Program-made: the position numbers and the translations under genes
The notes under the pieces: model-generated
The model's input: the letters and a program-made list of their open reading frames with translations, nothing else
Told to the model about the DNA's origin: nothing
Databases searched by the model: none
Shown here: positions 1 through 60,722 of the stretch, in pieces
Layout: every line of letters starts with the position of its first letter
Position numbering within the stretch: position 1 is the first letter of the stretch
Source of the DNA: Euglena gracilis
Taxonomy: Eukaryota
NCBI GenBank assembly: GCA_039621445.1
Contig: CP154954.1
Span: 47,161,847 to 47,225,846 of the forward strand
Direction: 5' to 3'
DNA length: 64,000 nucleotides

Positions 1-625
1 CTGACTGTCTCCCATCAGGATGATGTCGTCCAGGTATACAAAGCATAAAGGCCTTTGGCCCTCCAACGTTTTTCCAGGCATTTCATTAGACTCATGAATT
101 TTTCTGGCATCACATTTAAACCAAAACAAACTGCCTGGAATTCCCAGCATGTGTCTTCCAGAGTCATCCTCATGTAGGGTCTTAGGGCTGGGTTCAACAT
201 TAAATGAAAGTAGGCGTCCTTTAAGTCTACTTTCGCACCCCATTGTCCTTTTTTCAGGAGCCTGAAGATGACCTGGATGTTGTCCAGTTTGAAGGGGTGG
301 GGGAAAAAATGCTGGTTCAGCTGGCGACAGTCGCTGATTAAACGATGTTTCTCCCCCTGAGGTTCTTTTTTGGAGATTAAAAACCAAGGGATGGTGTGTT
401 GGGTACCTTCCCAAGGGACTGGTTTTATGGCTCCTGCCTGAAAATAGTCTTGTATAATACTTTTTGCCTTTTGTATTTCCACCTTTGACTTTGGTATGGA
501 ACATGTGCTGAGGGAGAGGGGTCACTCCCAAGGGGGGGTTACCCCCTGTGCGATGAGTTGCAACACCCTGGGGGGGCAACCTTTTGCCACCATGGCAGCT
601 GGTCCTGAAGCCTCTTAAACAGAGG
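1..625 (-). pseudogene. DIRS reverse transcriptase N-terminal part, frameshifted
   Basis: LFKRLQDQLPWW..., the 15..482 ORF and YLDDII lie in different frames. This could be decay or homopolymer sequencing error. Confidence 0.8.
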
Positions 626-2128: not shown

Positions 2129-3238
2129 ATGAGCAATGAAGTGGGGAAGAAACTGGAAATTTGCGGTCGACGTGAACTACCTGGAGCAGCTGTCGCCGCG
2201 GCAGCCGGACGACCTGGAGGTGCAGACGACATGTGGCGAACCGTGGCCGCCCCTCCCCCCCAGATCCCAGTTTCAGAAATTTCCCAGCAGAAAACCCCAC
2301 CCAGTGACGGCCACGGCCTGTGGACCACAGTGGCCAGAAAGACCAGAAGGAAGAAGGAACCCCCAGCCCAGCAGCACCGCCTGGGCATTGGGGCCCAATC
2401 AAGCAAGAGGGGGCAGAAGCAGACCACAGGATTCCACAGACACGTTCCACAATGGCGCCCAGCCGCCAGACCACAATTCGAACAGAAGTGGAGAAGATGG
2501 AATCAAGGCCAAGGTGGAGGCCATGGTGGCCAATTCCAGAAGCAATTCCCTTCAGGAAGAGGGAGAAAAGGTCTGCCACATCCCCCCAACCTTTCTAACA
2601 CAACAACCCCTCTCAAGGGGAGGAAGGGGGGGCACAGGAGCCCCCCCAGATTTCATGTGGAGCTGGAGACCAATGTCAAACTCAGCCCCATGGAGGGGAA
2701 ATCAGGGCCAAGGCGGCCAGAGTTTGAATCATTTGCACGGCCATGGTGGCCAAGAAGTGCAGGGCCATGGAGGCCATTATCTTCAGGGCCAGGGCGGCCA
2801 GAACTCACAGGGCCATGGTGGCCAAAGGGGTGGTCCAGAAATGGCCCCCCAGAAGCTAAGGTGCCAACCTTATATCAAGCATCTCCAGCCCCAGGAGGAT
2901 GCCCTAGAGAGGGCAAAGGAGGACGAGGGGGTCAACCCCCCAAATCATTTAATTCTACCCATGGAAGGGGAAATCAAGGGGGGGACCCTCAGTGGCCCCC
3001 CTATGGTATGTCGTCAGACAACACGAAGGACAAGATGGAGCAGAGAGCCTGTGAGAGAGAGGGTGAGTGCATGCACACCCCCCCATCCATTACATCAAAC
3101 TCCAGGGGCACCAAAGGTTGTGAAATGTCCCACAACCCCCAACCAACCCCCACAAAATCATTTGATTGCAGATGTAAATTCCATGGAGGAAAAGTGGGGG
3201 GGGCACCCCCCTGCACCAGAGACTGCAAAAAAGTCTAA
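2129..3238 (+). CDS. DIRS gag-like ORF1
   Basis: First ATG ORF after the left ITR, G/Q/R/W-rich; a homologous sequence recurs at 46.7-47.8 kb. Confidence 0.55.
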   Translation: MSNEVGKKLEICGRRELPGAAVAAAAGRPGGADDMWRTVAAPPPQIPVSEISQQKTPPSDGHGLWTTVARKTRRKKEPPAQQHRLGIGAQSSKRGQKQTTGFHRHVPQWRPAARPQFEQKWRRWNQGQGGGHGGQFQKQFPSGRGRKGLPHPPNLSNTTTPLKGRKGGHRSPPRFHVELETNVKLSPMEGKSGPRRPEFESFARPWWPRSAGPWRPLSSGPGRPELTGPWWPKGWSRNGPPEAKVPTLYQASPAPGGCPREGKGGRGGQPPKSFNSTHGRGNQGGDPQWPPYGMSSDNTKDKMEQRACEREGECMHTPPSITSNSRGTKGCEMSHNPQPTPTKSFDCRCKFHGGKVGGAPPCTRDCKKV

Positions 3239-6200
3239 AATGGTGGCTGAAAAATGCCCCCCCAGCAACCTGCCAACTTATAAAAGATGGAATTCAACCC
3301 CCCTGGGTCAAACCACCAAAATTATCCACGCATCCAAAAACCAGAGCCAACCTAGATCTGAGACAGGCAGAAAAAATCCTGTTGGATTACGAAAAATCTG
3401 GGTCCATAAAGAGGGTTCAGGATTCAGGAACCCAACATCTAATTCCCTGGTTCCTGATATCAAAACCAGATGGGGGGCAAACGAAATGGAGGTTCATCAG
3501 CGACTGCAGGGAAATAAACCAAAATTTTCCCGTGAAAGCTTTCAAATTAGATCACATTCAAAACATTTTCCCAGTTTTGGAGAAAGGCCACTGGGCGGCC
3601 AAAATCGACCTGAAGGACGCATATTTTCACATTCCAGTGAACCCAACCCTAAAACCCTTTCTAAGGCATCAGGTGGGGGGACAAACCTGGGAATTCCAGG
3701 CAGGCTGTTTTGGCCTAAATGTGATGCCACAAATTTTTATGTCAGTCATGAAGACATTCGAGAAACGTTGGAGGAAAAAAGGAATCCAGGTTTTTATTTA
3801 CCTGGACGACATTTTACTGGTTGCCCCCACTCAAAATACATTGCAAAAAGACTTGAACAGGGTTGTAAGAGACCTAATCGACTCGGGGTTCAAAATAAAT
3901 GTCAAAAAGTCAACCTTGGAGCCCACACAGGTCGTAAACCACTTGGGCTTCCAGTTAAATTTCCAAGAGGGAAAATTACAAATTCCCCCACAAAAAGTGA
4001 AGACAATAAAAAAGGAGCTTGGGAAAATAGTGAAAAAAGATTTCATGTCGAAAAGGCAGTTAGCTGCCATTTTGGGTCAAATCAGGTGCAACCTCATGGC
4101 CCTGCCTTTTTTAAGGGCTTTCACAGACTCCCTAACAAGATTTTTGGTAAACAAGTCTGCAGCCCCATGGGATTCAAAGCATTCCATTTCACAGGAAATA
4201 AAAGCCCAATTGAGGGAAATAAAAAATCTGCTGGACTCCTGGGGGGGCAGACCTTTCCCCCAAAATGCAACAAGGGAGTTGCATTCAGACAGCAGCACCC
4301 ATGCCTGGGGGGGGCTGGACATTCACACTGGAGAAGTTGTCCAGGAGTTTTGGAGAGAAAACTCCATTTTACATATCAATGTCAAAGAATTACGTGCAGC
4401 CATCAGCACAGTGAAAAGTCTAAGCAGGCCAGGGGAAACGGTGTCCCTTTCAGTAGACAATCAGGTAATTTATTATTACCTGACAAAAGGGGGGGGCAGA
4501 AAAGACCCTTTCAACAGCCTTCTAAGGCCATTTTTCAAATGGTGCATGGAAAACAATTTAACTCTACAAGTGAAATGGGTTCCTTCACAGGAATGCTTAG
4601 CAGACCCCATAAGCAGGTGGGAGTCAGACAGGGGGGATTACTCACTGGACCCCCAGCTCTTTCAATGGCTAAGGCAGCATTTCAAAGATTTCATAAATTT
4701 GGAAACAGATTTATTTGCCTCCCCAGGCAACAAAAAACTGCCCAATTTTGTGGCCCGATGGCCCCACTGGGAGGCCAGGGCAGTGGATGCCCTCCAATGT
4801 CCCTTGGACAACATGGGGGGACTTTATGCAAACCCCCCCTGGTCAATCATTCAGCAATTTCTCCCACGATTGAGAATGTTTCCCCAGACCAAAGTTTTGA
4901 TGGTCACCCCCTTTTGGGATTCAGCCACATGGTGGCCCCAATTAATAAAGATGAAAGTGCCAGGAACCCCCTGCCTGAAAATCACCCCCTACAGGGGCAT
5001 GTTCAAAAACTGCAGGGGGGAGAAAATGCCACCCCCCAGATGGCCCCTCCTTTGCATGATTTGCTCAGGCAAATTCTGGAGGGGAAACAAATTCAGAATA
5101 AAACCATTGACGATTTCCTGGGGAGAAACCCCAGCTTAAAGCGTTATCAAAGCGCTTTTACACTTTTATGGGTAATCTTGGAAAAAATGGGGGTACCCCC
5201 CCCTGAAGCCACACCTGACCAAGTGGCTGACGCTTTGATACAATTATTTCAATTTTCCAAGTCCCAGGCCCGTAATGCCTACAGTGCAATGCTTTTGATT
5301 CCTGGGTTTGGTGGACTGAGATTCCACGCCATGTTGGCACCTTACAAGAGGCTCTGGAACCAAAATCTGGAGAAATATGGTGCTTTTTGGGATCCCCTCC
5401 CAATCCTCTTGGGGCTGGCCCAAGCCCCCTTTCCCACTGATATTTGTGCATTACGTACACAACTTATTTTTTGCTCACGAATCCTCTGTTTATACAGATC
5501 TTCAGATTTGGAGAGGATCAAACGTACCACCAGTGTGTTGGGCAAGGCGCCCTACATCAAAATCAGGCGTAAAGGCCAGAAATTCCATAAGTGGGAAAGA
5601 GTTGTGTCCATTCCACAATGCCCCAAAATAAGCCCATTTCATTTGATGATGTCTTATGTTGCAGCAACAAGGTCATTCGTGAGACCTGGGGGGCCCCTTC
5701 TGATTTCACTAAAACCCCCCTTTAAGCCCATAAGTGCAGACACCATTGCTTCCATAACAAAAGATTTTTTGGCCAAACATGGGGTGCCCCCCCAGGTGTG
5801 GGGGGCCCACTCCACCAGAGGAGCAGGAGTTGGTTTACTCAAAAAATTGGGCCTTTCTGCCCAAGAAGTTTGTGAAATTGGTCAGTGGAGGGGGGTGGAG
5901 GCTTTTACAGCCCACTACCAACGACTTGGTGCCCAAGGTGCCCTGGAAAATGCCCTGGCCCCCCTAATTTCAGTGCACAATCAGGCCTCACAAGGGCAAA
6001 GTGCGGAGCCCGAGGTGTCTCGTACTCCCTCGAGGAAAACCGACAAGGGAGGAAGGGACACCGAGGGCGAAGCACAAAGACCTTGTGAGCCCAACCCCCC
6101 CACCCATAAAAGAAAATTTGTGTTCAAAAGCCCTCGGTCAGAAAACGGGGGCCAGGGGGGGGAGAGGGGGGGGACCCCCCCCAGGGGCAAGAAGCCACGT

Positions 6201-6263
6201 CGCCAAGTCGGAGCAGCATCGTCAGCCAACTCCGGCGAGGCGGCACTAAGCAGGACCTCCTAA
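2136..6263 (+). CDS. DIRS tyrosine recombinase (domain about 5050-5950, at the end of a 1375-codon open frame)
   Basis: Catalytic residues R (LYRSSDL), K (RRKG), HSTR, GQW and HY are all present. Confidence 0.9.
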   Translation: MKWGRNWKFAVDVNYLEQLSPRQPDDLEVQTTCGEPWPPLPPRSQFQKFPSRKPHPVTATACGPQWPERPEGRRNPQPSSTAWALGPNQARGGRSRPQDSTDTFHNGAQPPDHNSNRSGEDGIKAKVEAMVANSRSNSLQEEGEKVCHIPPTFLTQQPLSRGGRGGTGAPPDFMWSWRPMSNSAPWRGNQGQGGQSLNHLHGHGGQEVQGHGGHYLQGQGGQNSQGHGGQRGGPEMAPQKLRCQPYIKHLQPQEDALERAKEDEGVNPPNHLILPMEGEIKGGTLSGPPMVCRQTTRRTRWSREPVRERVSACTPPHPLHQTPGAPKVVKCPTTPNQPPQNHLIADVNSMEEKWGGHPPAPETAKKSKMVAEKCPPSNLPTYKRWNSTPLGQTTKIIHASKNQSQPRSETGRKNPVGLRKIWVHKEGSGFRNPTSNSLVPDIKTRWGANEMEVHQRLQGNKPKFSRESFQIRSHSKHFPSFGERPLGGQNRPEGRIFSHSSEPNPKTLSKASGGGTNLGIPGRLFWPKCDATNFYVSHEDIRETLEEKRNPGFYLPGRHFTGCPHSKYIAKRLEQGCKRPNRLGVQNKCQKVNLGAHTGRKPLGLPVKFPRGKITNSPTKSEDNKKGAWENSEKRFHVEKAVSCHFGSNQVQPHGPAFFKGFHRLPNKIFGKQVCSPMGFKAFHFTGNKSPIEGNKKSAGLLGGQTFPPKCNKGVAFRQQHPCLGGAGHSHWRSCPGVLERKLHFTYQCQRITCSHQHSEKSKQARGNGVPFSRQSGNLLLPDKRGGQKRPFQQPSKAIFQMVHGKQFNSTSEMGSFTGMLSRPHKQVGVRQGGLLTGPPALSMAKAAFQRFHKFGNRFICLPRQQKTAQFCGPMAPLGGQGSGCPPMSLGQHGGTLCKPPLVNHSAISPTIENVSPDQSFDGHPLLGFSHMVAPINKDESARNPLPENHPLQGHVQKLQGGENATPQMAPPLHDLLRQILEGKQIQNKTIDDFLGRNPSLKRYQSAFTLLWVILEKMGVPPPEATPDQVADALIQLFQFSKSQARNAYSAMLLIPGFGGLRFHAMLAPYKRLWNQNLEKYGAFWDPLPILLGLAQAPFPTDICALRTQLIFCSRILCLYRSSDLERIKRTTSVLGKAPYIKIRRKGQKFHKWERVVSIPQCPKISPFHLMMSYVAATRSFVRPGGPLLISLKPPFKPISADTIASITKDFLAKHGVPPQVWGAHSTRGAGVGLLKKLGLSAQEVCEIGQWRGVEAFTAHYQRLGAQGALENALAPLISVHNQASQGQSAEPEVSRTPSRKTDKGGRDTEGEAQRPCEPNPPTHKRKFVFKSPRSENGGQGGERGGTPPRGKKPRRQVGAASSANSGEAALSRTS
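3178..5139 (+). CDS. DIRS pol: reverse transcriptase - RNase H - DNA N6-adenine-methyltransferase-like domain
   Basis: IDLKDAYFH, FGLNVMP, YLDD; RNase H HSDSS..WG, HINVKELRA, VDN, ADPISR; MT DLFAS..N and LYANPPW. The frame is open from 3178 with no ATG near its start. Confidence 0.93.
   Translation: MPWRKSGGGTPLHQRLQKSLKWWLKNAPPATCQLIKDGIQPPWVKPPKLSTHPKTRANLDLRQAEKILLDYEKSGSIKRVQDSGTQHLIPWFLISKPDGGQTKWRFISDCREINQNFPVKAFKLDHIQNIFPVLEKGHWAAKIDLKDAYFHIPVNPTLKPFLRHQVGGQTWEFQAGCFGLNVMPQIFMSVMKTFEKRWRKKGIQVFIYLDDILLVAPTQNTLQKDLNRVVRDLIDSGFKINVKKSTLEPTQVVNHLGFQLNFQEGKLQIPPQKVKTIKKELGKIVKKDFMSKRQLAAILGQIRCNLMALPFLRAFTDSLTRFLVNKSAAPWDSKHSISQEIKAQLREIKNLLDSWGGRPFPQNATRELHSDSSTHAWGGLDIHTGEVVQEFWRENSILHINVKELRAAISTVKSLSRPGETVSLSVDNQVIYYYLTKGGGRKDPFNSLLRPFFKWCMENNLTLQVKWVPSQECLADPISRWESDRGDYSLDPQLFQWLRQHFKDFINLETDLFASPGNKKLPNFVARWPHWEARAVDALQCPLDNMGGLYANPPWSIIQQFLPRLRMFPQTKVLMVTPFWDSATWWPQLIKMKVPGTPCLKITPYRGMFKNCRGEKMPPPRWPLLCMICSGKFWRGNKFRIKPLTISWGETPA
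5984..6089 (+). repeat. DIRS internal complementary region (ICR)
   Basis: 5984-6019 is the reverse complement of 1845-1880; 6020-6089 is the reverse complement of 6315-6384. Together they encode the circle junction gtacga|gacacc. Confidence 0.93.
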
Positions 6264-9233: not shown

Positions 9234-9827
9234 TAGGGCAGAACGGGAAGGCCTGGTGGGGGGGTTGGTCGACCCCCCACTTGGGAGGTGGGGGGGGGGT
9301 AGACCCCTCCACCCACCACAGAATTTTCACCAATTTCGGGAAGACGGGGATTTTGGCCGGAAAAATGCACCCAACCCACATGATTTTTTTATGGAAAACC
9401 ACATTTTTTTCACAAAAAAATCTCAAACATTTCAGGGTAAAAAATTGGTAGTTTTTAGGGGGGGGGGGGTGAAAAAAATGCAGGTCAAAAAAAGTGGACC
9501 AAATTTTGGCACAATCAAATTTTACTGACATTTTTTTTGGACTTTAAATGGCATTTTCTTTGCTTCAAAACCTCTCAAAATCAAAAAATTGAGAAAATGT
9601 TGAATTTTTGGAAGTTGTGAAAAAATGGGGTTTTCAGGGATTTTTTGGGGGGCCTCCCATATGGGTCCCAAAATGGGGCAAAAAAACATCCGGCGCCAAA
9701 GGCCAGAAAATTTTTTTCAGGTCCAAAATTGGTGCTCCCGGAAACATGGGAGAGGTGGTGGGAGGGGGGGGGGGGTGGTTGACCCCCCCACCACCCTGGC
9801 TGTTTGGCCGATTCCCGTTCTGCCCTG
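9234..9827. mobile_element. Non-autonomous TIR element with 8-bp TSD (hAT-like)
   Basis: Ends tagggcagaacgggaa / ttcccgttctgccctg; TSD cctgtggg at 9226-9233 and 9828-9835. An inverted partial copy lies at about 42356-42830. Confidence 0.88.
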
Positions 9828-12001: not shown

Positions 12002-15000
12002 TTGGGAACAGAATCCGCTGGATTTTCCAGAAAAAAAATGTTAACAAGATTCTTTCTTTCAGAAAAATGTGATGTTTCCATTCATGCAGACCTCTGGGGA
12101 AACGCAGAGGACAATGGAATCAAATGCCTTTTTGTTTTCAATCAACCCACCCACCCAAAACCCTTGCAAAAAAAGTCTTCCGGCCAAGTGGACAGACAAT
12201 GCGGGACCATGGTGCATCCAATCTTTTTCTTTTGGTGGGGGAGGGTTCCAACAGGATTCTGGGTATTGGTGTCCGTACCGATTCATGCCACTGGGCCCAT
12301 ATGAAGGTTGAAAGCCGTCGTAGTTCTCAGCGGGCGGTGGGGGTGTGGGCAGACATTCACTTGGTGTATATCATAATGTCGCTGTGATGTGCAAGTGATA
12401 CACAAATTTCTTTGTGGTATTGCCTTTGGCCCTTCTTGTCTGTGTGTGTGGAGGTGGTCTTCCGAGTGAAAAATATGTCGAAACTGTGATCTTTGATATG
12501 CACTGGCCCCCCAAAAAATCAAAAAGACAATAAAAAAGGACAAAAAGTTTGGTATCAGGAACAATTGGGCCCAGATCATACCATTGCTTGGCGACCCCCC
12601 CCGGGGGGGTCACTTTCCACTCTGAAAAAACCAGTCAGTCACTTTACCCCCCCCCCCCCGGGGGGATCAGCCACTCTTCAGGAGCAATGAAATATTGCCA
12701 AAAAGTCTCAAAAAATCGAAAAAATTTCCGGCGCCTTTGGCGTCACTTTTTCATTTTCGGGCCTACCCCACCCCCCAGGGGGGGGGGGGGCTCTTGGCCA
12801 AAAACCAGTCAGTCACTCTGAAAAAACCAGTCAGTCACCCGCCGGGGTGGGGTAGGACAGGTGTTGAGCAATGGTGTGGCCCAGATCAAATCATTTCAGA
12901 GAAACTCAAGAAATTGCAGGGAACAAAAAACGTGTCGCATTTTTGTCACCTGCTTTTTTCGTGATACACATTTAATGCACTAAAATTTTGGTGATATATG
13001 TGATGCACAGTGATACACAATTTTTTTTGCTGATGCAATAAATGAACGTCTGGGTGGGGGTGGCGGGAGCATGGTGCCAAAAGACTCCGGCTCGGTAGGG
13101 TAGCCAGACACAGGACATTGCGAAACAGCCAAACAGGCAAGAAAGAAAAGAATTTGCAAAAGAAGTTTCGCACATGCCCTGGGAACTGTAATATGATGAG
13201 GGATCCTCAACTTGCGGTGGGGCACCTTCAAGCCTTGGTCTTCCCCTTGCAGGACGCGGCTTGCAAGCGGCAAAAGCAATCCAGATGCCCTTCCCAGAAT
13301 ATTTTTCATGACCTTGAGCTGTAGGATCCAGGCTTCTGAGATGAGGAAATCATTCTACGAACAGAAAATATGGGGTGAAGATGGACTGCGCAACCAGCAA
13401 CCTGAACCATCCGGTTTGGCCAAAGAAGCTTTTGGTGGAAAAAAAGTAAAATGTCGCCATTTGTGGGGAAGCGATTGAATTGTCACTGTCAATCACAAAT
13501 AAAACTTGGAAGCCACCACATTCTTGCTCTTTGTTTGGAAGAAGTTTCTTCTTGAATTTTTTTTAGAATTTTCTATCAAAATGGTGAAGCCTTCTGCAAA
13601 AGGTCAAAAGGCATTTACAGGAGCCTGGTTGGATCCATCACATATCCATGCAAAGCGACCAAAGCATGAACTGCACTTTCAACAGAATCCATCTTGATCT
13701 TTTGCAGACAGGTGCTTGCAGTTGATTCCTCATACAACCAGGAGAAAGGCAACCCACCCATTTCGAGAACCAAAGGTTTCTGTATAATTTTGATTGTTGT
13801 CATCTGCACCAAGGTTCCTTCAAGAGAAAGACCCCTGGTGCCCCCCCCACCCTGGCTGACCAGGGGAAGGTCCCAAGGGGGAGGGGAACAACCCACCCAC
13901 CCAGGGTGGCGCCCCCCCCCGGGGGGGGGGGGCGGGGACCCCCCCCAAAATCGGGCCCGTTAAAGGCAATTTTCAAAAACTTTCGGCGCTTTGCGCCGAA
14001 AAGGTATACCCAGCGCCTCCGGCGCGGGACCCTCCCCCCCCCCCGGGGGGGTCCGGCCCAGACCCACCCACCCACCCCTCCCCCCGGGGGGGGGGGGGGG
14101 GTCAGGTGACTTAAAAAGAAGCCGGGAGGGGAAGGGGGAGGAAACCACAAAAAAAGAAGTTTCAAGTCCAAGTGAGAGTCATGGCACAAAGTGGGCCACC
14201 ATACCCCACCATGTGCATCTGGCTGATAATTTTTCCGAATCATCATTTTGTTGGCACATCGGGGGACCCATTAAACTGTTTGAGTGCCCGAAGGGAATCA
14301 ATTAAAAGTCCCCAGGGGGGGGGATAAACCCCCACACCCCCCAAGAATGGGGGCCCCACTTATTCCATGTGTACCCAGCGAATGTGGTTGGACAATTAGG
14401 TGCTGAAGGATCCGACCAAAAAATCGGTGGAACACGATTTTTTCTAAAAAGGCTTGGAACGCCAGGGAGGGTGCCCAAAGGGCTTTGTGGACCCCGGGGT
14501 TCTCACCAGAGACAGGGTTTGGAGTTTTTCTTGGTTATTCGTGGAAAGCGTGGGAAAAAATATTTTGACCCCCCCCCGCATACACTCTGCCATTACGGGA
14601 GTCAGATGGGAGGTGGGGGGGTCGGGTCGACCCAGGCTTGGGAATGTCGGAGGAGGGGGGTGGGGGGACCCCATTCCAAAACCAGGGGGTACCACGTACC
14701 TCCTGTCTGCGGAGCTTCCCATACAACACTGACCCCCTATGACACCCACTCAAAGAAAATTCCCTTGGTGCCGAAGGAAAACTTTGACCAAAAATTCGGC
14801 GCCCCCGAAAATAAGGCCTGGGGGTGGGTTGGACTCCCCCACCACCCACAGGTTTGCGGGGATCCTTGTGCAGCTGTGGGTTGACCCGGCTGGCACCCGT
14901 AGCAAGGCAAAAAAAAAGCCCAAATCCAACCAGCCTGGTTTCCAGCCTGATTCTTGAGTGGAAAACCAAAAAAAATGGCCAAAAAAATGGCAACAAGTTA

Positions 15001-17273
15001 TTTTTGAAGTCTCTTTCCAAAAAATCCCACAAACTTTCGCTGCGGGAGCCAAATTGCTGCTCAACACACAGATCACTTGATTTGGGCTCGGTGTGTGCTG
15101 CTTCTGAGCACTTGCCTGCTTGTGGCCCTGGTGTTGTCTGTCTTGAACAGTTCACAACTTTGAACAGCACCATACTGCCAAAACAGGGAAGCCAAAGCCT
15201 CAGGATCCAAAGGAATGTTGCAAGATATGTGCAGCGTGTCGCACGGTGGGCGGATGTGATCGAAGTTCCTGCTCTCTGGCTTCCGGAAACGATGCATGTC
15301 AGAGTTGCTGAAATCTTGGGTAAGACCATCGTCCTCTGCTCCTGTTGACATCAAATAGGGGTGATGCAACCAGACTGATATTTTGGTGCTCTTTCTTTCC
15401 AACCGGCCTGCCCGAGTCAGGAATTTTCTTGCGGAATCTCCTGGGGGGAGAGGGGGGCCAGCTGGAAAAAGGTGCTGGCTGGACACCCCGGGGGGCTGGC
15501 AGCGGCACTCAGTGGGTACCCCACCCAAAAGCAGGCAAAAAAATCCAAGTCTGGCTGGGCCTGTTGGGTTGGAAAAAAAGGTGGGGTGGGCTCCCCTCCA
15601 GTTTTCACATTTTTTTGCAGTGACACCCCGGGGGTTTGTATCAAAAGCCATTCAAGTGATTGCATCGTTCCGCCACCAGAATGCGAGGAAAGGAAATTCC
15701 ACTCCTCGAAAGTTAGGGACTTGACTTGGAACAGAAATTGATCCAAAATGCTGACCAATCTCTGACAAAATTCGAAAACTTGGGGTGAATGAGGGAGTGG
15801 GATTTTACGCTTCAAATTTTGGTAAAACTCCAAGCCTGACTGCAGGCTAAAAGTTATGCTGCATGCCCAAGACCGATTCCCCACCACAATTCTCAATAAA
15901 ATTTGGTGAGGGTCGCAGAGCGACGGAAGGGTTGGCAGCTGATTGTGATAAAAACCGTCAGGAAAACGCTCATCACTGATCAATTGTTGCCAGAAAAAAA
16001 CCCGGAAACCCAGAATTGAGACCAGCCTGTGCGTGACCAGCTGACTTGGAGAATCTTTCCGATGAGAGGGCATCTGTTCAAGTTGGTGAGTGCCGACCAG
16101 GCTTGGCTGGAGTCCCGGACAATTGACAGCCATTCTCACCAGGTCAATCTATTCTCTTCTTATTTTCTTTCCCCCCTATCCTCTGTCTTTCCTACGCTTC
16201 CTGAACAGCTTTTTCACCTTCATGACATCTCCTGCTGTGCCAAATAAGTTGAACAGTATCTGTGGCGTTGCCCTTTCATCCACATTTTTAACCCACAAAA
16301 CACGTTGATAAGAAGTCGCTGGAGGAGCAGGATACAACTGTGCCTGCTGTTGCCACATTTGGCTGCCATCATCTTGCGGTTGTTGTGGTGGTGGTGGCTG
16401 ATAGGTCATGGTGCTGGATGTTCCGTAGGCGGGTTGCATTGGTGGAGGAGGAGCTGCTGGGGGAATTCCAGTGGAAGCCATGGGATAAGCTGGAGGTCCC
16501 AGGGCACCTGGCGGAGTTGAGAGCAAGGACGGTTGTCCCTGGTTCTCAACTGTGTAATCCTTTGCACACAACTTTGCATCAATGGAAGTTAGTCTTCAGC
16601 AGACGCCAACTTGCACTGTTTGATTTGAAAAAATAAAATGTATTCAGAAATCAAAAGGCTGTGAGTTGGCGTTTGACCGGGAGAATTGAATCTGCATGTG
16701 GCAAGATCCAGTAAAAATGTGTTTTCCATTGAACTGCTCTTTTGCGGTGGCAGCTTCTTGAACACTCTCCATCTCCACAAAGCCTTGAATTTGTCCATTC
16801 TTGGGTGATATTGCAACTTTCCGCACTCGTCCAGCCATGGAAAACACTTGGTACAAAGTGTCAACATCCACGGGATGAAGGAGCAGAGTGACCAGGACAA
16901 ATAGAATGTTGTTTGGAGGCGTTTCATGCAAATCAGTGTGCAGTGTCAGATTTTGCCTGTCCGAGTACACAACCTTTACGTGCTTCCCACGTACAATGGT
17001 GTTGCCTCCGGTGTTGTGCATGAATTTTTGGGCTGACTGTAGGGAAGCAAACTCGACGAAAGCCTCCTTCTTGTTCAACAGCTTCAGGATATTTGTGACA
17101 ACACCAAAAGGTGCACATGCAGCATTAATCTCGGAGTCAGTTGCATAGTCTGGTAGGTGGCGGAAGTAGAGTACCCGGCTTGGACTACTCATCAATCCGG
17201 ATTGCCCAAACCTATCGCCAGCCTCTGCAGTAGGTGGTCTTCTCACACCGCCAGGAACGTCATTCAGGAACAT
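12002..17273 (-). CDS. Polypyrimidine-tract-binding / hnRNP-L-like protein, 4 RRMs, about 559 aa, 9 exons
   Basis: Exons 17273-16679, 16594-16196, 16134-16033, 15365-15122, 13699-13631, 13323-13185, 13105-13056, 12344-12265, 12003-12002 sum to 1680 nt in frame. PTB-like motifs: PSRVLYFRHLP, PPNNILFV, GSCHMQIQFS, LTQDFSNSDMHRFRKPESRNFDHIRPPCDTLHIS, IKMDSVESAVHALVALHG. The intron 2 boundary is uncertain. Confidence 0.88.
12004..12264 (-). other. PTB intron 8, 261 nt, nonconventional, splits the stop codon
   Basis: accCAGaatcctgttgga / tccagcggattCTGttccc stem; the join reads caa t|aa. Confidence 0.72.
12345..13055 (-). other. PTB intron 7, 711 nt, nonconventional; decayed copy of the tgtatcac hAT-like element
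   Basis: CAGacgttcat / gtgaatgtCTG 11-bp stem; TSD relic cccccacc / cccacacc; both ends homologous to the elements at 20758 and 37447. Confidence 0.85.
12577..12878. mobile_element. MITE with 8-bp TSD nested in PTB intron 7
   Basis: TIR cataccattgct / agcaatggtgtg; TSD gcccagat at 12569-12576 and 12879-12886. Relatives (aaaaccagtcagt motif) near 7140-7240, 11240-11310 and 30650-30960. Confidence 0.85.
13106..13184 (-). other. PTB intron 6, 79 nt, nonconventional
   Basis: tccCAGggcatgtgcgaaac pairs with gtttcgcaatgtcCTGtgtct; joins in frame. Confidence 0.8.
13324..13630 (-). other. PTB intron 5, 307 nt, nonconventional with 7/8 TSD relic
   Basis: aacCAGgct / agcCTGgatcc; 8 nt before CAG = gatccaac, 8 nt after CTG = gatcctac; restores MDPTAQ..GKGIWIAFA. 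Confidence 0.82.
13700..15121 (-). other. PTB intron 4, 1422 nt, nonconventional, contains nested repeats
   Basis: aagCAGgcaagtgct / agcacctgtCTGcaaaa (11/12 paired); joining gives TRATIKMDSVESA (RRM4 RNP1 region). Confidence 0.82.
15366..16032 (-). other. PTB intron 3, 667 nt, nonconventional
   Basis: gcaCAGgctggt / atcagtCTGgttgc stem; joining gives WSHHPYLMSTGAEDDGLTQDF, which matches the PTB RRM3-RRM4 linker. Confidence 0.85.
16595..16678 (-). other. PTB intron 1, 84 nt, nonconventional/intermediate
   Basis: ggtCAAacgccaact pairs with agttggcgtCTGctgaa (11/12). A 1-nt slide gives GT...AAG and the same mRNA. Confidence 0.8.
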
Positions 17274-19574: not shown

Positions 19575-20735
19575 AAAACGTGCCCAACCACAGATGCCCT
19601 CCCCTTTTTTTCCGCAGCCCTCCCACTGTGGCTAAACGCACGGCAAACTTTGTGAATGGTCTTTTGCCACCTCCCCCTAGGACGGAACTGTTCCTGGCTG
19701 CTCTCGCGGTATACCAGCAAGCTTGCTGTTGCTGCCAACTTTTTGGAGTTCGCCAAACTGTGTCAACATCGGCAAGCTTCTTATCCTGAGCTGGATGCTT
19801 TGTTGCCTGGACGGGATGGGAGCAAGGAATTTCTTAAGCCGGAGGGTACCCTACCCCCGGGGGGGGGGTCCAGCCAGCCAGCAGCTCAAATCCAGCCAGC
19901 AGCCCAAATTCGGGCTGGGAGCCCCCCCCCCCGGGGGTCGAGTGAAATAAAGTCGGGTCCAGCACGGCCGGAGGCCGGGCCAGCCGGCCGCAGGCCGACC
20001 AGCCAACTGGGCTATCCAGCTCACTTATCCCCGCATTTTCCCCCCTCATCACAGCCCCTCCATCGCAGCCCCCCAGCCTTGATCTAGCTCCACCCATCAA
20101 AATGTCGAAAATGGCAAAAATGTGCAAGAAAATTTTGTTTTTCCTCGACCCAGCCCAGCCCAGCCTGCTCCAGCCCCGGACCCCCCCCCCCCACCCCCAC
20201 CCCCCCCCCGCGGGCGGGAGCAGCCAGCAGCTCAAATCCAGCCAGCAGCCTTTTTGCCAGCCGGAGGCTGGACCCCCCCCCCCGGGGGGTCCTTAAGAAA
20301 TTCCCTGGATGGGAGCTGGAACCCACCCTGTTGTTCGATGAGGCAAGCGTCATTGAACAATGTGTGGCTCAACGTGCGCAGCAGTCGGGAACTTTGTTCG
20401 TTTCAGGGAATCGTTCGGCAACCTCTTTTCACACATACGTGAATGCCGTCGCTCGGGCATTCCGCAAAACAACTACCGAGGGAGTAGTGTTGCCTTCCTC
20501 AGAGCGCCAATTCCCCCATTTCAACGAGCTGTTTTCGCGTTCCCTGGAGCGCGAACGCGCGCGGAAGGCAGTGTCAACGGTGGTGTTGTTTGTGGTGTTG
20601 CCATTCCCAAAAATCCAAATTGTGTGGAGCGTGGTGTGTGACGCCTGCGGTTTGGCATATCATTTTCATTGCCAAGCTTTGCGGCGGCCACCAAAGTATG
20701 GCTCTTTTTTGTGTAAAGCGTGTCGTGTTCCGTGA
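19575..20735 (+). pseudogene. Degenerate coding relic ending in a PHD-like finger, probably TE-borne
   Basis: VVCDACGLAYHFHCQALRRPPKYGSFLCKAC at the end; frameshifts upstream; interrupted by the element at 19823-20307. Confidence 0.45.
19823..20307. mobile_element. MITE with 8-bp TSD (CAA...CTG ends)
   Basis: TIR caaggaatttcttaag / cttaagaaattccctg; TSD gatgggag at 19815-19822 and 20308-20315. Confidence 0.88.
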
Positions 20736-44000: not shown

Positions 44001-44363
44001 ACGAATGTGCAGGGGCAACCAGGCAAATCCACGCACAAACACACCAGAACAGAACAGCCGGCAAGGAAAGCAGGACCTCTCCCTTCCTCCCCCTTCCTCT
44101 GTCGTGGGAGTCCGAAAAAAACTAACCCCCCCCCAAAATATAAAACCCCCTCGGTTTTATATTTGGGCGGAAAAAAAACTACGGTTCCCCTTATCCCTCT
44201 TACGAGTCCCTGGACCAACATATTTGGGCGGAAATTTCAAGACCCCCCGGGGGGGTTTTACTTTGGCGGGAAACCCAAACTTCTGGCAACTTAATCCATT
44301 TTGTCTCCCCCAGCCATTTTGTGTTGTTTCCAATGGAATAATTCCTGTCTGGAGGCTCCCTTG

Positions 44364-46286
44364 ATGACTCAATCATCAAGGGAGTCAATGTCGGTAGTTT
44401 CAAGTGCCGAGACCACTGATATACCAACATCTGAGGTGTCAGGACAGGATGAATCCGAAGCCAATGCTTCAACAGTTGTAGCAGCGCCTGCCCCAAAGAA
44501 ACGCCGTCGCTCCATGGCTTTGTTTGTGAAAAAGAAGGCTATCCTGGAATTTGATGCTGGGTTTTGCTTGTTTGATTGTTCTGATGCAGCTTGCTCTCAT
44601 TATCAAGATTTCAAAGAGTTCTATCTGCAAGGAATACACTGTGTGCCTGGCCAATTTCAACCATGAGTGGTTGCAAAAGAGGGAAGAAATCTTCAAAGCA
44701 TGTGAAGAAATCAAGAAGGGGCGTTGTGGCAAGCGCAAGCGGGTGTCTGGTAATGGCTGGAAAGCGAAGTTTCCAGACCTGGAAAAGAAATTATATGAGT
44801 GGTTTCAACTGAAAAGGCATGTGAAAAAGTGTTTACCATGAATTATGCAAACCCTCACAACAGGTGCAGCAAAAAGAACGTGTCAGCTACCTTGGCCTCT
44901 TCCGTCATGCAAGGGAAACGTCTGCACCATTTGGAATCCCATCCAAGGAGCTCACCGACAAATGGTTTCTGGGCTTCCGAAGGCGCTTCAAGGTGTTTAC
45001 GTACCTGTGATGCCTCCGATATAAATTTTGGTGGTGTCACAGATGGTGAACACCAAGGAGAAGCGCATGTTGAAGATTGACCAGCTGAAGATGCTTGAGC
45101 GCGCACAAGGCTTCCATGGCTACCTTAGACAACTTTACAATCTACTGCGTTTCAAGGTTTTGTGTCACCTGAGGATTTGGTTTTTGGCTTCTTGTGACCC
45201 AGGTGAGCAACGTTGCGAATATGGATGAGAGTCCACTTTCGTTCACTGGGTACAAGTCCAACATGATGTCCTTGACTGTTAAGGGTCTGGACAACGTCGT
45301 TGGTATGTCAATCAACCACGGCAAACTCTTTGTTCTTTTCTCGTTGCAATCAGGGCTCAGCCCAATCACAGAACAAGACCTAAAGAAGGTCGCAACCTTG
45401 ATCATGACGGCATTCCCCCATGAGCAGAAGTTGCGGCCCATCCTGCTCTTCAAGGGCGGTGGACGTGTGTCCGAAGCGGAAAAGAGGAAGTGGAACAAGG
45501 AGGTGATCGTGCGGTTCAATGACACCGCAACCATGGATGGGGAGTTCATGTTGCGGTGTGCGTGATTTCCTAACACACACCGCGCTTTTCGCAATCTCAG
45601 GCATTACCTTCCACTTATCACGGACGCCATGCAAGGGACGGGTCTGTTGGTTTATGACAGCCAGAATTATGCTTAACATTGTGGGTACACTGCTTGGCAC
45701 TGTTGAACCCTGGTTGACTTTTTTTTGCTGCCCCCCCCAGTATTAAGCAAAACCTGATGGCAGCTGCAACAGTCACCTCACAGATGAGGTCAAGGGCGCC
45801 TTGTACGCAAACGGTGTTGCTTTAGCCGTGATCCCTCGCGAAATGACCCTTGCCTTACAATTCCTTGACCTTTACTTTTTTGCGTACTTCAAGCACTTGT
45901 ACGCCGAAGAGGTTGACAAAGTTCTTGAAAAAAAGACTGAGAAATTGAGTGCTTCCGATAAACGGGTCAGCATGACCCATTGCGCGGCGGCTGCATGGAA
46001 AGCCACTTCTGACCGCTTACCCATTGAGCGCCTCTTCCGTGAACTGGGATACATTTGGCATGGGGATGGCTCTGCCCTGAAAATCCCCGTCCTCCCATCC
46101 TACAAATTTGATCCTCTTAGGGCCACCCCAGTTATTCGAGTGCCACTGACGCCATATGAGCGCACTGAGATCCAAAAAATGGCCAAGGAGGACATCATGC
46201 CTGTTGCTGCTGGGTGTTCCCAATCTGTTCTGACCCCTGTTGCGAAGAAGTTAAAGCAGACCACTCTTCCCTTCGGGAAGCCGTGA
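44364..46286 (+). CDS. pogo-family transposase (HTH + CENP-B-like HTH + DD35D), spliced
   Basis: GT-AG introns 44821-44863, 44993-45042, 45157-45202, 45303-45353, 45556-45600 plus nonconventional 45659-45761 give one frame: KFPDLEKKLYEWF, KWFLGFRRRF, NMDESP, VYDSCNSHLT, QFLD. The first junction (about 44561-44608) is off by 1 nt. Confidence 0.85.
45659..45761 (+). other. Nonconventional intron, 103 nt, with 7/8 TSD relic
   Basis: agcCAGaattatgcttaa / ttaagcaaaacCTGatggc; flanks atgacagc / atggcagc; removal deletes an in-frame TAA and restores YD|SCNSH. Confidence 0.85.
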
Positions 46287-46438
46287 GGGATTGGTTGCAA
46301 ACTGCCTCGGGCCATGATCCCTGTTCACCAGCTGCTGCGCCTCCCTTGAGGGGGGGTTTTATATTTTGCGGGGGGGTTATATTTGGTCGCCAAATCAAAC
46401 GCCCTAGGGGGGGTTTTATATTTGGGGGGGGGGGGTTG

Positions 46439-56068: not shown

Positions 56069-56467
56069 GAACCCCCCCCAGGGGGTACCCCCCCCCAATA
56101 TAAAGCCCCCCCTGGGGTTTATTTTTGCTGCCCAAATATAAAGCCCCCCCCCCCTGACGTGGAGCCAGACGCTGGGGTCACTAAGGAAAATCTTTGGGTG
56201 GAAACAAAAAATTTTTCACCAGAAATGCTCCATTTTGGATAAGAATTGCACATTTTGTTTGCAAAAAATGGGAGGTACACAACGAAAATTTGGCATAAAA
56301 TTGGTATTTGGCCACAATTGAAGGCCACCGAAGGTCACAGGGGCCACCCGAAAAAGTTTGATTCCCCCCCTTAATATAAAGCCCCCCCAAATGTAAAGCC
56401 CCCTGGGGGTCTTGAAATCCCGCCCAAATATGAAGCCGGGGGAGCTTAATATTTGGGGGGGGGGTTC
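56069..56467. mobile_element. MITE related to the pogo element at 44124
   Basis: aatataaagccccc repeats; gggggtcttgaaatcccgcccaaatatg is the near reverse complement of about 44219-44248. Confidence 0.7.
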
Positions 56468-60061: not shown

Positions 60062-60722
60062 CGTGGCGGCGTCTGCCTTGACGCCCCGTGAGGCCTCCGC
60101 CAGGGCCTGCCCCGCCGCGCCGTACGCCTCCTGGCGGATGCGGGCCATGGTGTCGATGTGGTCCGCGTCCACCAGGCCCGCCGCGTAGTCCCCGGCAGGC
60201 AGGCACGAGATGGCAAAAAGAACGGCCTCGTGTACTGGGGGCTGCGGGTTCAGTGCGGAGGGAATCTTCTTGGCACGTTTGATGGGGCCAGCCAGGGCTG
60301 TATGGGAAGGCCTGGTGGGGGGGCCGGACCCCCCCCCCGAGGTGGGGGTCCACCACCCCCACCCACCGGCGCAAAGAAAATTTTGACCTAAAAATCGGCG
60401 CTCCCACAGAAATACGGGAAGGCCCGGTGGGTGGGGGTCGACGCCCGACCCACCACCCAGAGGGTTGCAGGGATTCCTCCACAGCCCTGGGGCCAGCATT
60501 GGTCTCGCGCTGCAATGTGGTGCACGAAAACATCACAGCACATCCATCCTGTCAGTGGTGGTTTCTCTTTGCTTTTTTTTGGGGGGGGGGTTGGAACGCT
60601 GGCGCCGGTCTGGACCACGGTGGCCTGCTGGAGGCTTCCGAGCAGCTGCTCCGCCTTGGCGAGGGCTGTGCTGGCGGTTTGGTGGGACTTGAGCAGCCGG
60701 GGTTGGGGGGATGACGCTTGAT
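60062..60722 (-). CDS. Internal exons of a multi-exon gene of unknown product
   Basis: Exons about 60722-60598, 60548-60493 and 60287-about 60062 are joined by a 49-nt GT-AG intron (60597-60549) and a 205-nt nonconventional intron (60492-60288): ALAKAEQLLGSLQQATVVQTGAS|DGCAVMFSCTTLQRETNAG|PIKRAKKIPSALN..DADHIDTMARIRQEAYG. Further GC3-rich exon-like blocks near 62020-61920, 61380-61215, 58875-58750, 58460-58270 and 57580-57240 are not fully joined. Confidence 0.65.
60293..60489. mobile_element. CAG...CTG MITE with perfect 8-bp TSD inside coding sequence
   Basis: TIR cagggctgt / acagccctg; TSD gggccagc at 60285-60292 and 60490-60497; the left end resembles the 9234 element (gggaaggcctggtggggggg). 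Confidence 0.9.

Follow-up and report, generated by a model that had tools for sequence, protein, structure and literature searches.

Nonconventional introns make up about 72% of the introns of Euglena agilis, and both their origin and the enzyme that splices them are described as unknown (Nomura et al., PNAS 2025, PMC12501133). Knock-in mutagenesis in that study yielded an intron code, 5'-N3CDG...CH'GN5-6 followed by R-3', in which the 5' spacer could be neither lengthened nor shortened by 1 nucleotide (nt) and base pairing beside CAG/CTG was needed: splicing was spoiled when that pairing was abolished. Release of these introns as circular RNA has also been reported (via PMC11282704 and the Discussion of Nomura 2025). 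Here we describe a 103-nt insert in a pogo-like DD35D transposase gene, found in a 64,000-nt stretch of Euglena gracilis contig CP154954.1 (the window). The best explanation is probably that the insert represents a euglenid-type nonconventional intron gained within the transposase family.

With the introns of Nomura 2025, the 103-nt intron shares the 3-nt spacer followed by CAG, the CTG followed by a 5-nt spacer, the exon purine and the adjacent pairing. Likewise, it has no GT-AG ends and stands alongside conventional introns in one gene. For an intron known from its sequence, the only sequence difference from the introns in the accessible text is a 5x4 internal loop directly inside CAG:CUG. 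The supplements of that study give counts and legends to figures; a table of repeat lengths is not among them.

A recent gain has been described for gapC intron 4 of Euglena agilis ACOI 323, which carries eight-nucleotide direct repeats and for which double-strand-break repair was proposed (Milanowski et al. 2016, PMC4770533). Like that intron, the 103-nt intron is nonconventional, is present or absent among relatives and has an 8-nt repeat longer than usual; unlike it, ours is seen among diverged transposase copies and has a different repeat sequence, whereas gapC intron 4 is a strain polymorphism in a housekeeping gene. The hypothesis that nonconventional introns derive from MITEs (miniature transposable elements with inverted repeats) dates from 2013 and is found in Milanowski et al. 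2014 (PMC3935182), in a 2024 review (PMC11282704) and in Nomura 2025. The inverted ends of the 103-nt intron and its junction repeats, which resemble target-site duplications (TSDs), agree with this model. The accessible parts of PMC3935182 and PMC11282704 name neither a TSD length nor a transposon superfamily, whereas here the repeat is 8 nt long and abuts CAG...CTG exactly. The introners of Micromonas, Aureococcus and Amoebophrya (PMC11282704, PMC7789003) are similar as well, being small elements with terminal inverted repeats (TIRs) and TSDs that turned into introns, with one TSD copy removed. Those of Micromonas and Aureococcus, however, have GT-AG ends and use the spliceosome, and the Amoebophrya repeats measure 3-5 nt.

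Earlier papers describe an 8-nt repeat at a nonconventional intron of recent gain, propose a MITE origin and define the 3+5 spacing. The present intron is instructive but an ordinary member of this known kind. Datable gains are useful material for the question of how nonconventional introns originate, and the 103-nt intron belongs among them. One young nonconventional intron with an 8-nt repeat had been published so far; the present intron is a second, in a different gene.

A 103-nt insert that fits the Euglena intron code

In the spliced model, the transposase gene is an open frame from the ATG at 44364 to the stop at 46284-86 once five conventional and two nonconventional introns are removed (Table 1). 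All five GT-AG introns of 43-51 nt announced in the original prediction are present, with lengths of 43, 50, 46, 51 and 45 nt. The catalytic triad consists of D225 (45224-26, in NMDES), D337 (45656-58, in VYDSCNSH) and D373 (45867-69, in QFLDLY), with 111 residues between the first two and 35 between the last two, which is the pogo-like DD35D arrangement. Removal of the 103 nt joins ...LLVYD to SCNSHL..., with the intron directly after the Asp codon, and the spliced model (D337, 35 residues, D373) bears out the earlier claim that both D-S-C-N-S-H and DD35D are restored. If the intron were retained, the protein would end five residues past D337, without the third Asp.

Each end of the insert was compared with the published code. 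At the 5' end, the 3-nt spacer and the CDG at +4 to +6 are found as AGC-CAG at 45659-45664. At the 3' end, the CH'G and the 5-6-nt spacer are found as CTG-ATGGC at 45754-45761, and the first downstream exon base is a purine, A at 45762. All sequence features of the Euglena code are present, as expected from the earlier call of a nonconventional intron, and by every sequence test the insert reads as an intron of the Euglena type. The 3+5 rule that this case had been said to support is obeyed in its spacing; it is not a new rule, having been published as the Nomura 2025 code.

The predicted 7/8 direct repeat was also located. Its two copies, ATGACAGC at 45654-45661 and ATGGCAGC at 45757-45764, are identical at 7 of 8 positions, lie at an offset of 103 nt and directly adjoin the CAG...CTG ends. 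A repeat search with seed 6 passed over this pair because its longest exact run is only 4 nt. In the window, 8-mers matching at 7 or more of 8 positions at offset 103 occur at 103 of 63,890 positions, a rate of 1.6e-3, which is about four times the uniform expectation and the same as the rate at offsets of 40-400. Given this rate, the repeat is unlikely to arise by chance at a register fixed beforehand, abutting inverted ends.

The intron ends are AG...GC, and no GT/GC-AG ends are usable for the same product: 16 GT/GC-AG combinations hold the frame open, and D-S-C-N-S-H is restored by none of the 16. When a 103-nt removal is slid along the junction, the residue encoded there is Gly for any start in 45654-45657 and Asp for any start in 45658-45662; the latter set, which includes the 3+5 position (45659), yields identical mRNA.

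Homologues place the junction in a conserved segment. Of the 43 homologues that span residues 331-344 (14 residues), 28 align over them without a gap by script, with D at the Asp position in 27 and N in one. When the rows are read by eye, D/N-x4-H is gapless in 42 of the 43, the gaps of the other rows lying N-terminal to the motif; the exception, P0029, lacks the whole segment. Protein conservation does fix the boundary, as had been proposed.

The host is predicted to be a pogo-like DDE_1 transposase, a membership based on its homologues and its triad. A phmmer search of the C-terminal exon against 1.84 billion representatives returned 72 proteins at E <= 1e-3, including 16 at E <= 1e-10, and blastp of the spliced product reached E 8e-59 to P0020 and 3e-58 to P0008. 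In a Pfam scan of 10 of the 72 homologues, DDE_1 exceeded its cutoff in seven, CENP-B_N in two (P0008 and P0019) and HTH_Tnp_Tc5 in one (P0020). The C-terminal exon alone matches DDE_1 with 16.4 bits (E 0.007), below the 22-bit cutoff. The N-terminal exons taken singly have no Pfam match, and P0008 aligns to the N-terminus of the gene. A search for longer homologous proteins found none among 1,458 candidates, and 123 pattern matches in bacterial and archaeal genome contigs included no relative.

Within the pogo superfamily, Passer and Fot are reported to have DD35D spacing (Gao et al. 2020, PMC7386202). The gene has in common with these families (Passer, Fot/Fot-like) D-x4-H, the 35-residue spacing and a probable DDE_1 core, and its homologues carry CENP-B_N or HTH_Tnp_Tc5 DNA-binding domains. 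Unlike the published DD35D families, it has seven introns in about 1.9 kilobases (kb) and no identifiable TA/TAA duplication at its presumed ends.

The code also accounts for a second break in the gene. Applied blind to this frame break, it predicts a 49-nt nonconventional intron (44584-44632) that was missing from the intron list of the original prediction, and we count this as support for reading the 103-nt insert by the same code. Removal of the 49 nt joins frame 0 to frame 1, linking an N-terminal helix-turn-helix-like exon with the remainder of the gene, and the alignment to P0008 then runs without a gap over the junction, from the RRS to the WL residues. The minimum free energy (MFE) fold of this intron pairs UGCAG with CUGCA, and no flanking repeat is seen (a 2/8 match, counted by eye). 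In such genomes the 3+5 rule has to enter into gene modelling; when it is ignored, the transposase appears broken twice.

One discarded gene model, which put a 29-nt GT-AG intron at 44561-89 and misplaced the sixth intron, contained stops throughout. Rfam at gathering thresholds reported no family anywhere in the window. Among the conventional introns, the one at 44993-45042 has unusually strong end-to-end pairing, at -17.4 kcal/mol versus -4 to -13 in the other four, which recalls the "intermediate" introns discussed for euglenids.

Table 1. Coordinates of the transposase gene, its introns and the parts of the 103-nt intron, as positions in the window.
Feature	Coordinates	Strand	Remarks
Approximate pogo-like element	44124..46437		Inverted copies of the C-run/AAATATAAAAC motif on either side; ends tentative
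Pogo-like transposase gene	44364..46286	+	8 exons, 7 introns, 511 codons and stop; spliced model open throughout
Second nonconventional intron, 49 nt	44584..44632	+	ATG-CAG...CTG-CAAGG, then exon A; predicted by the 3+5 rule from the one frame break left over
Conventional GT-AG intron, 43 nt	44821..44863	+	
Conventional GT-AG intron, 50 nt	44993..45042	+	
Conventional GT-AG intron, 46 nt	45157..45202	+	
Conventional GT-AG intron 4, 51 nt	45303..45353	+	In frame; removal gives a gapless alignment to P0020
Conventional GT-AG intron 5, 45 nt	45556..45600	+	In-frame TGA
Left copy of the 8-nt direct repeat, ATGACAGC	45654..45661	+	5 exonic nt and the 3-nt intron spacer
Nonconventional intron, 103 nt	45659..45761	+	AGC-CAG...CTG-ATGGC, then exon A; placed by the 3+5 code
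5' arm	45662..45685	+	CAG (45662-64), 5-nt loop, paired segments 45670-76, 45678-81 and 45683-85; fold with CAG:CUG enforced
In-frame TAA within the intron	45674..45676	+	Stops the protein if the intron is retained
3' arm	45735..45756	+	Paired segments 45735-41 and 45743-49, 4-nt loop, CTG (45754-56)
Right copy of the 8-nt direct repeat, ATGGCAGC	45757..45764	+	5-nt intron spacer and 3 exonic nt

Empty and filled sites in the transposase family

Relatives of the transposase were drawn from a database of predicted proteins, with genomes and metagenomes as its source, and the intron site was compared at the protein level. The empty-site check proposed with the original prediction, run in this way on proteins, gave the expected outcome at a resolution of zero amino-acid indels: four genomic relatives read Y/F-D-S-C-N-S-H. 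The most similar of them, P0074 (74% identical), continues as ...Y-D-S-C-N-S-H... through the site with zero residues gained or lost. Similarly, P0075 (68% identical) and P0001 (61-64%) read Y-D-S-C-N-S-H and P0015 (53-66%) reads F-D-S-C-N-S-H through it, each with no indel.

The closest relative covering the site is P0078, at 84% identity. It reads ...LLVYDNPNNA-stop, compared with ...LLVYDSQNYA-stop in the genomic frame of the window, and terminates five residues into the insert, at the same spot as that frame. Judged from its protein, P0078 has an insert there too, with a 5' end related to that of the window copy, and the intron is not private to the window copy. P0073, also 84% identical, begins 14 residues downstream of the junction and does not cover the site.

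Two further relatives, P0076 and P0077, start inside an intron at the position of conventional intron 4, where their residues are unrelated, and P0078 reads through an intron homologous to conventional intron 5. Because P0076-P0078 begin, end or read into these two introns, we regard them as genomic open reading frame (ORF) fragments; for the same reason, the positions of introns 4 and 5 are taken to be conserved in the family.

The empty site in four relatives, together with the filled site in P0078, argues that the 103-nt intron was gained inside the transposase family, apparently after the split from the lineage at about 74% identity and before that at 84%. This presence and absence matches a known pattern in which conventional introns are conserved and nonconventional introns are lineage-specific (Milanowski 2014, as quoted in Milanowski 2016, PMC4770533). 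The intron is absent at 53-74% identity and present in the window copy and the 84% copy, with its 7/8 repeat still kept. The case suggests a question to be asked genome-wide: is the repeat flanking young introns exactly 8 nt long, in the register 5+3 / 5+3 around CAG...CTG?

Proposed splicing and origin, and competing explanations

The mechanism that we propose starts from what was observed at this locus, namely its anatomy, its fit to the code, the junction in the protein and the presence or absence of the insert among relatives. In the pre-mRNA, CAG (45662-64) would pair with CUG (45754-56), and the adjoining arms would lengthen this helix and bring the junctions together. The nonconventional splicing activity of Euglena would then make its cuts 3 nt before CAG and 5 nt after CUG, and joining ...TAT GAC to AGC TGC... 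would restore D-x4-H around the second catalytic Asp. The excised piece would comprise the insert and exactly one copy of the 8-nt repeat, so the mRNA would read as an uninterrupted copy of the gene. The gain itself may have been an insertion that duplicated 8 nt of target, with a small inverted-repeat element as its most likely source. We infer actual splicing, a transposon origin and present-day activity of the transposase.

Long paired ends had been claimed for the intron. When it is folded alone, a terminal rod of 3+7+4+3 base pairs (bp) forms, made up of CAG:CUG, a 5x4 internal loop and the arms 45670-85 / 45735-49; beyond the loop, 14 further bp in three segments provide the pairing beside CAG/CTG. 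The repeat search delimits the inverted arms as 45667-85 / 45734-52 (19 nt, 79% complementarity). The end-to-end duplex amounts to -20.4 kcal/mol, a value reached by 0.05% of arm shuffles. The claim holds for the intron folded alone and fails for the fold with exon flanks, in which the ends are unpaired.

Several results weigh against reading the insert as a spliced nonconventional intron of transposon origin. The window is rich in G and C runs, and 8% of random places in it, taken in the same geometry, reach the -20.4 kcal/mol of the duplex. When 9-14 nt of flanking exon are included at both ends, the MFE leaves the intron ends unpaired (z = +1.26), and the 5x4 internal loop lies directly inside CAG/CUG, whereas in Nomura 2025 splicing was spoiled once the pairing next to the motif was abolished. 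P0078 has Pro at the CAG codon of the window; if the two are in register, its protein implies that the motif is lacking there, and the code may have ceased to apply at the P0078 locus. A second copy of the 103-nt element was not found in the 64-kb window, where the best other matches are at most 18 nt long with E >= 0.44. Finally, 8-nt repeats around CAG...CTG are not enriched window-wide, with 19 of 28,380 pairs, equal to the rate in control pairs.

These points bear on the competing explanations to different degrees. One is that the insert goes unspliced and disables a transposon copy that is dead, its fit to the code being coincidental. The stop five codons into the insert, the apparent lack of CAG at the P0078 locus and the MFE that leaves the ends unpaired next to exon flanks would agree with this. 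However, the fit spans all four sequence features of the code, and the 511-codon frame is open, including 173 codons downstream, though an insert shared with a copy of only 84% identity must be of some age; this argument from intactness is weak alone. We therefore regard an unspliced insertion as improbable. Still less credible, to the point of being very improbable, is an assignment to other repeat-flanked noncanonical introns, such as the Amoebophrya introner elements (Farhat 2021) or the introns of hemistasiid diplonemids, in place of the Euglena kind. Both share inverted ends and short direct repeats with the insert, but the Amoebophrya repeats are 3-5 nt long with no fixed CAG/CTG spacing reported in the accessible texts, so that an introner of that type was set aside, and CA at +4,+5 and TG at -7,-6, as described for euglenids, are kept in three introns of the window.

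The more serious competitor accepts the same intron and concerns its source: the insert could be filler DNA picked up while a staggered double-strand break was being repaired, with the 8-nt repeat as the repair scar and not the footprint of a transposase. Milanowski 2016 (PMC4770533) read the eight-nucleotide repeat of the recently gained gapC nonconventional intron in this way, the window holds no second copy of the insert, and the arms weakly resemble the repeat motif of the host family (see below), as captured local DNA might. On the other hand, CAG...CTG ends with extended inverted arms are transposon-like, and another element of the window, at 60290-60494, combines an 8/8 repeat and perfect 10-bp TIRs with partial relatives elsewhere. 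We give repair filler a real but minor chance of being the correct account.

A transposon origin of the insert is plausible but unproven. Of the features expected of a MITE, TIRs are seen as CAG/CTG with imperfect 19-nt arms, and the 7/8 repeat abuts the termini, a single instance from which a fixed length is not demonstrable; empty sites exist, at the protein level, in four relatives. When a stem of at least 9 is imposed, repeats of at least 7/8 flank 2 of 82 CAG...CTG pairs in the window versus 2 of 1,078 in eleven control motif pairs. The second of the two CAG...CTG cases is the element at 60290-60494. This 205-nt CAG...CTG element has terminal inverted repeats of 10 bp without a mismatch, is flanked by an 8/8 repeat (GGGCCAGC) and folds at -117 kcal/mol; partial relatives lie at 14774-14863 and 9235-9294, and its + strand obeys the purine rule.

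The 3- and 5-nt spacers sum to 8, which invites the speculative suggestion, one less likely than not to hold, that nonconventional introns descend from CAG...CTG-ended elements making 8-bp target-site duplications. Excision from RNA might then, equally tentatively, be tuned to take the element together with exactly one copy of the duplication. If so, the insertion would be undone precisely and such elements would be tolerated even beside a catalytic residue, and the 103-nt intron (7/8) and the 60290-60494 element (8/8) would be young examples. Transposons of the hAT superfamily make 8-bp TSDs and have CAG/TAG ends, and an 8-bp duplication with CAG...CTG geometry is hAT-like. Among 134 window ORFs of at least 125 amino acids, no transposase family with 8-bp duplications and CAG ends was seen. 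In a limited literature search, which is no proof of novelty, we found neither the equation of 3+5 with a duplication length of 8 nor a link to superfamilies with 8-bp TSDs, and no work that combined Euglena, hAT, introns and MITE. The term "hAT" is absent from the main text of Milanowski 2016, of a 2024 BMC Genomics paper and of the 2024 review PMC11282704, and the accessible text of that review has no "8 bp", "8-bp" or "8 nt".

Element ends and other features of the window

The extent of the transposon that carries the gene is suggested by a repeated motif. Inverted copies of this C-run/AAATATAAAAC motif, 25-38 nt long, flank the transposase gene, with motif matches at 44130-50 (+), 46352-72 (-) and 46409-29 (-), and three inverted pairs support the extent given in Table 1. 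The motif has eight matches in the window versus 0.02 expected. When the sequence is read by eye, no clean TA duplication or matching TA pair is apparent at the presumed ends.

In an element of about 380 bp at 56087-56466, the terminal motif of the pogo family (C-run and AATATAAAGC) stands at both ends in inverted orientation and recurs in the interior. The element shows no clear TA duplication and is probably a non-autonomous derivative of the pogo-like family. Given this element and the flanking motif, the family looks mobile.

The arms of the 103-nt intron were scored with a matrix built from nine family motifs without the intron. At 45671-45684 (-) and 45735-45748 (+), they rank second and fourth among about 128,000 non-family positions; their scores of 14.2 and 13.8 sit among the top background matches, well below the family instances at 18-23. 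A T-run and then GCTGCCC, which lie upstream of the 3' arm, are collinear with the element at 56.1 kb. A local alignment of the intron with that element scores 26, which is not significant, as controls reach it in 3-16% of cases under three schemes and in about half or more (up to 67%) under a fourth. That the insert was built from the host family's own repeat motif is a lead, not a result.

Outside the transposase gene, a probable 84-nt nonconventional intron lies at 16595-16678 (-) in an RRM/PTB-like gene (about 16179-17273, -) with RRM_1, RRM_5 and RRM_8 matches. It reads GGT-CAA-ACGCCAAC...GTTGGCGT-CTG-CTGAA, then G, and its removal gives ...IQFSRLTSIDAK... in a single frame. The CA at +4,+5 and the TG at -7,-6 fit, the third base of the 5' motif, A, falls outside the CDG code, and the flanking repeat matches at 3/8.

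Retroelement copies are represented by reverse-transcriptase (RVT_1) ORFs: the frame 3178-5136 (+) matches at E 8e-21 and, less strongly, 18-521 (-) at E 2.6e-5. A frame of 1,376 amino acids at 2133-6260 (+) has no Pfam match. A further CAG...CTG hairpin element at 20225-20323 folds at -46 kcal/mol around an internal GGAC-C-run/G-run-GTCC palindrome; a 77%-identical partial copy lies 350 nt upstream, at 19875-19939, and the window has many further occurrences of the palindrome.

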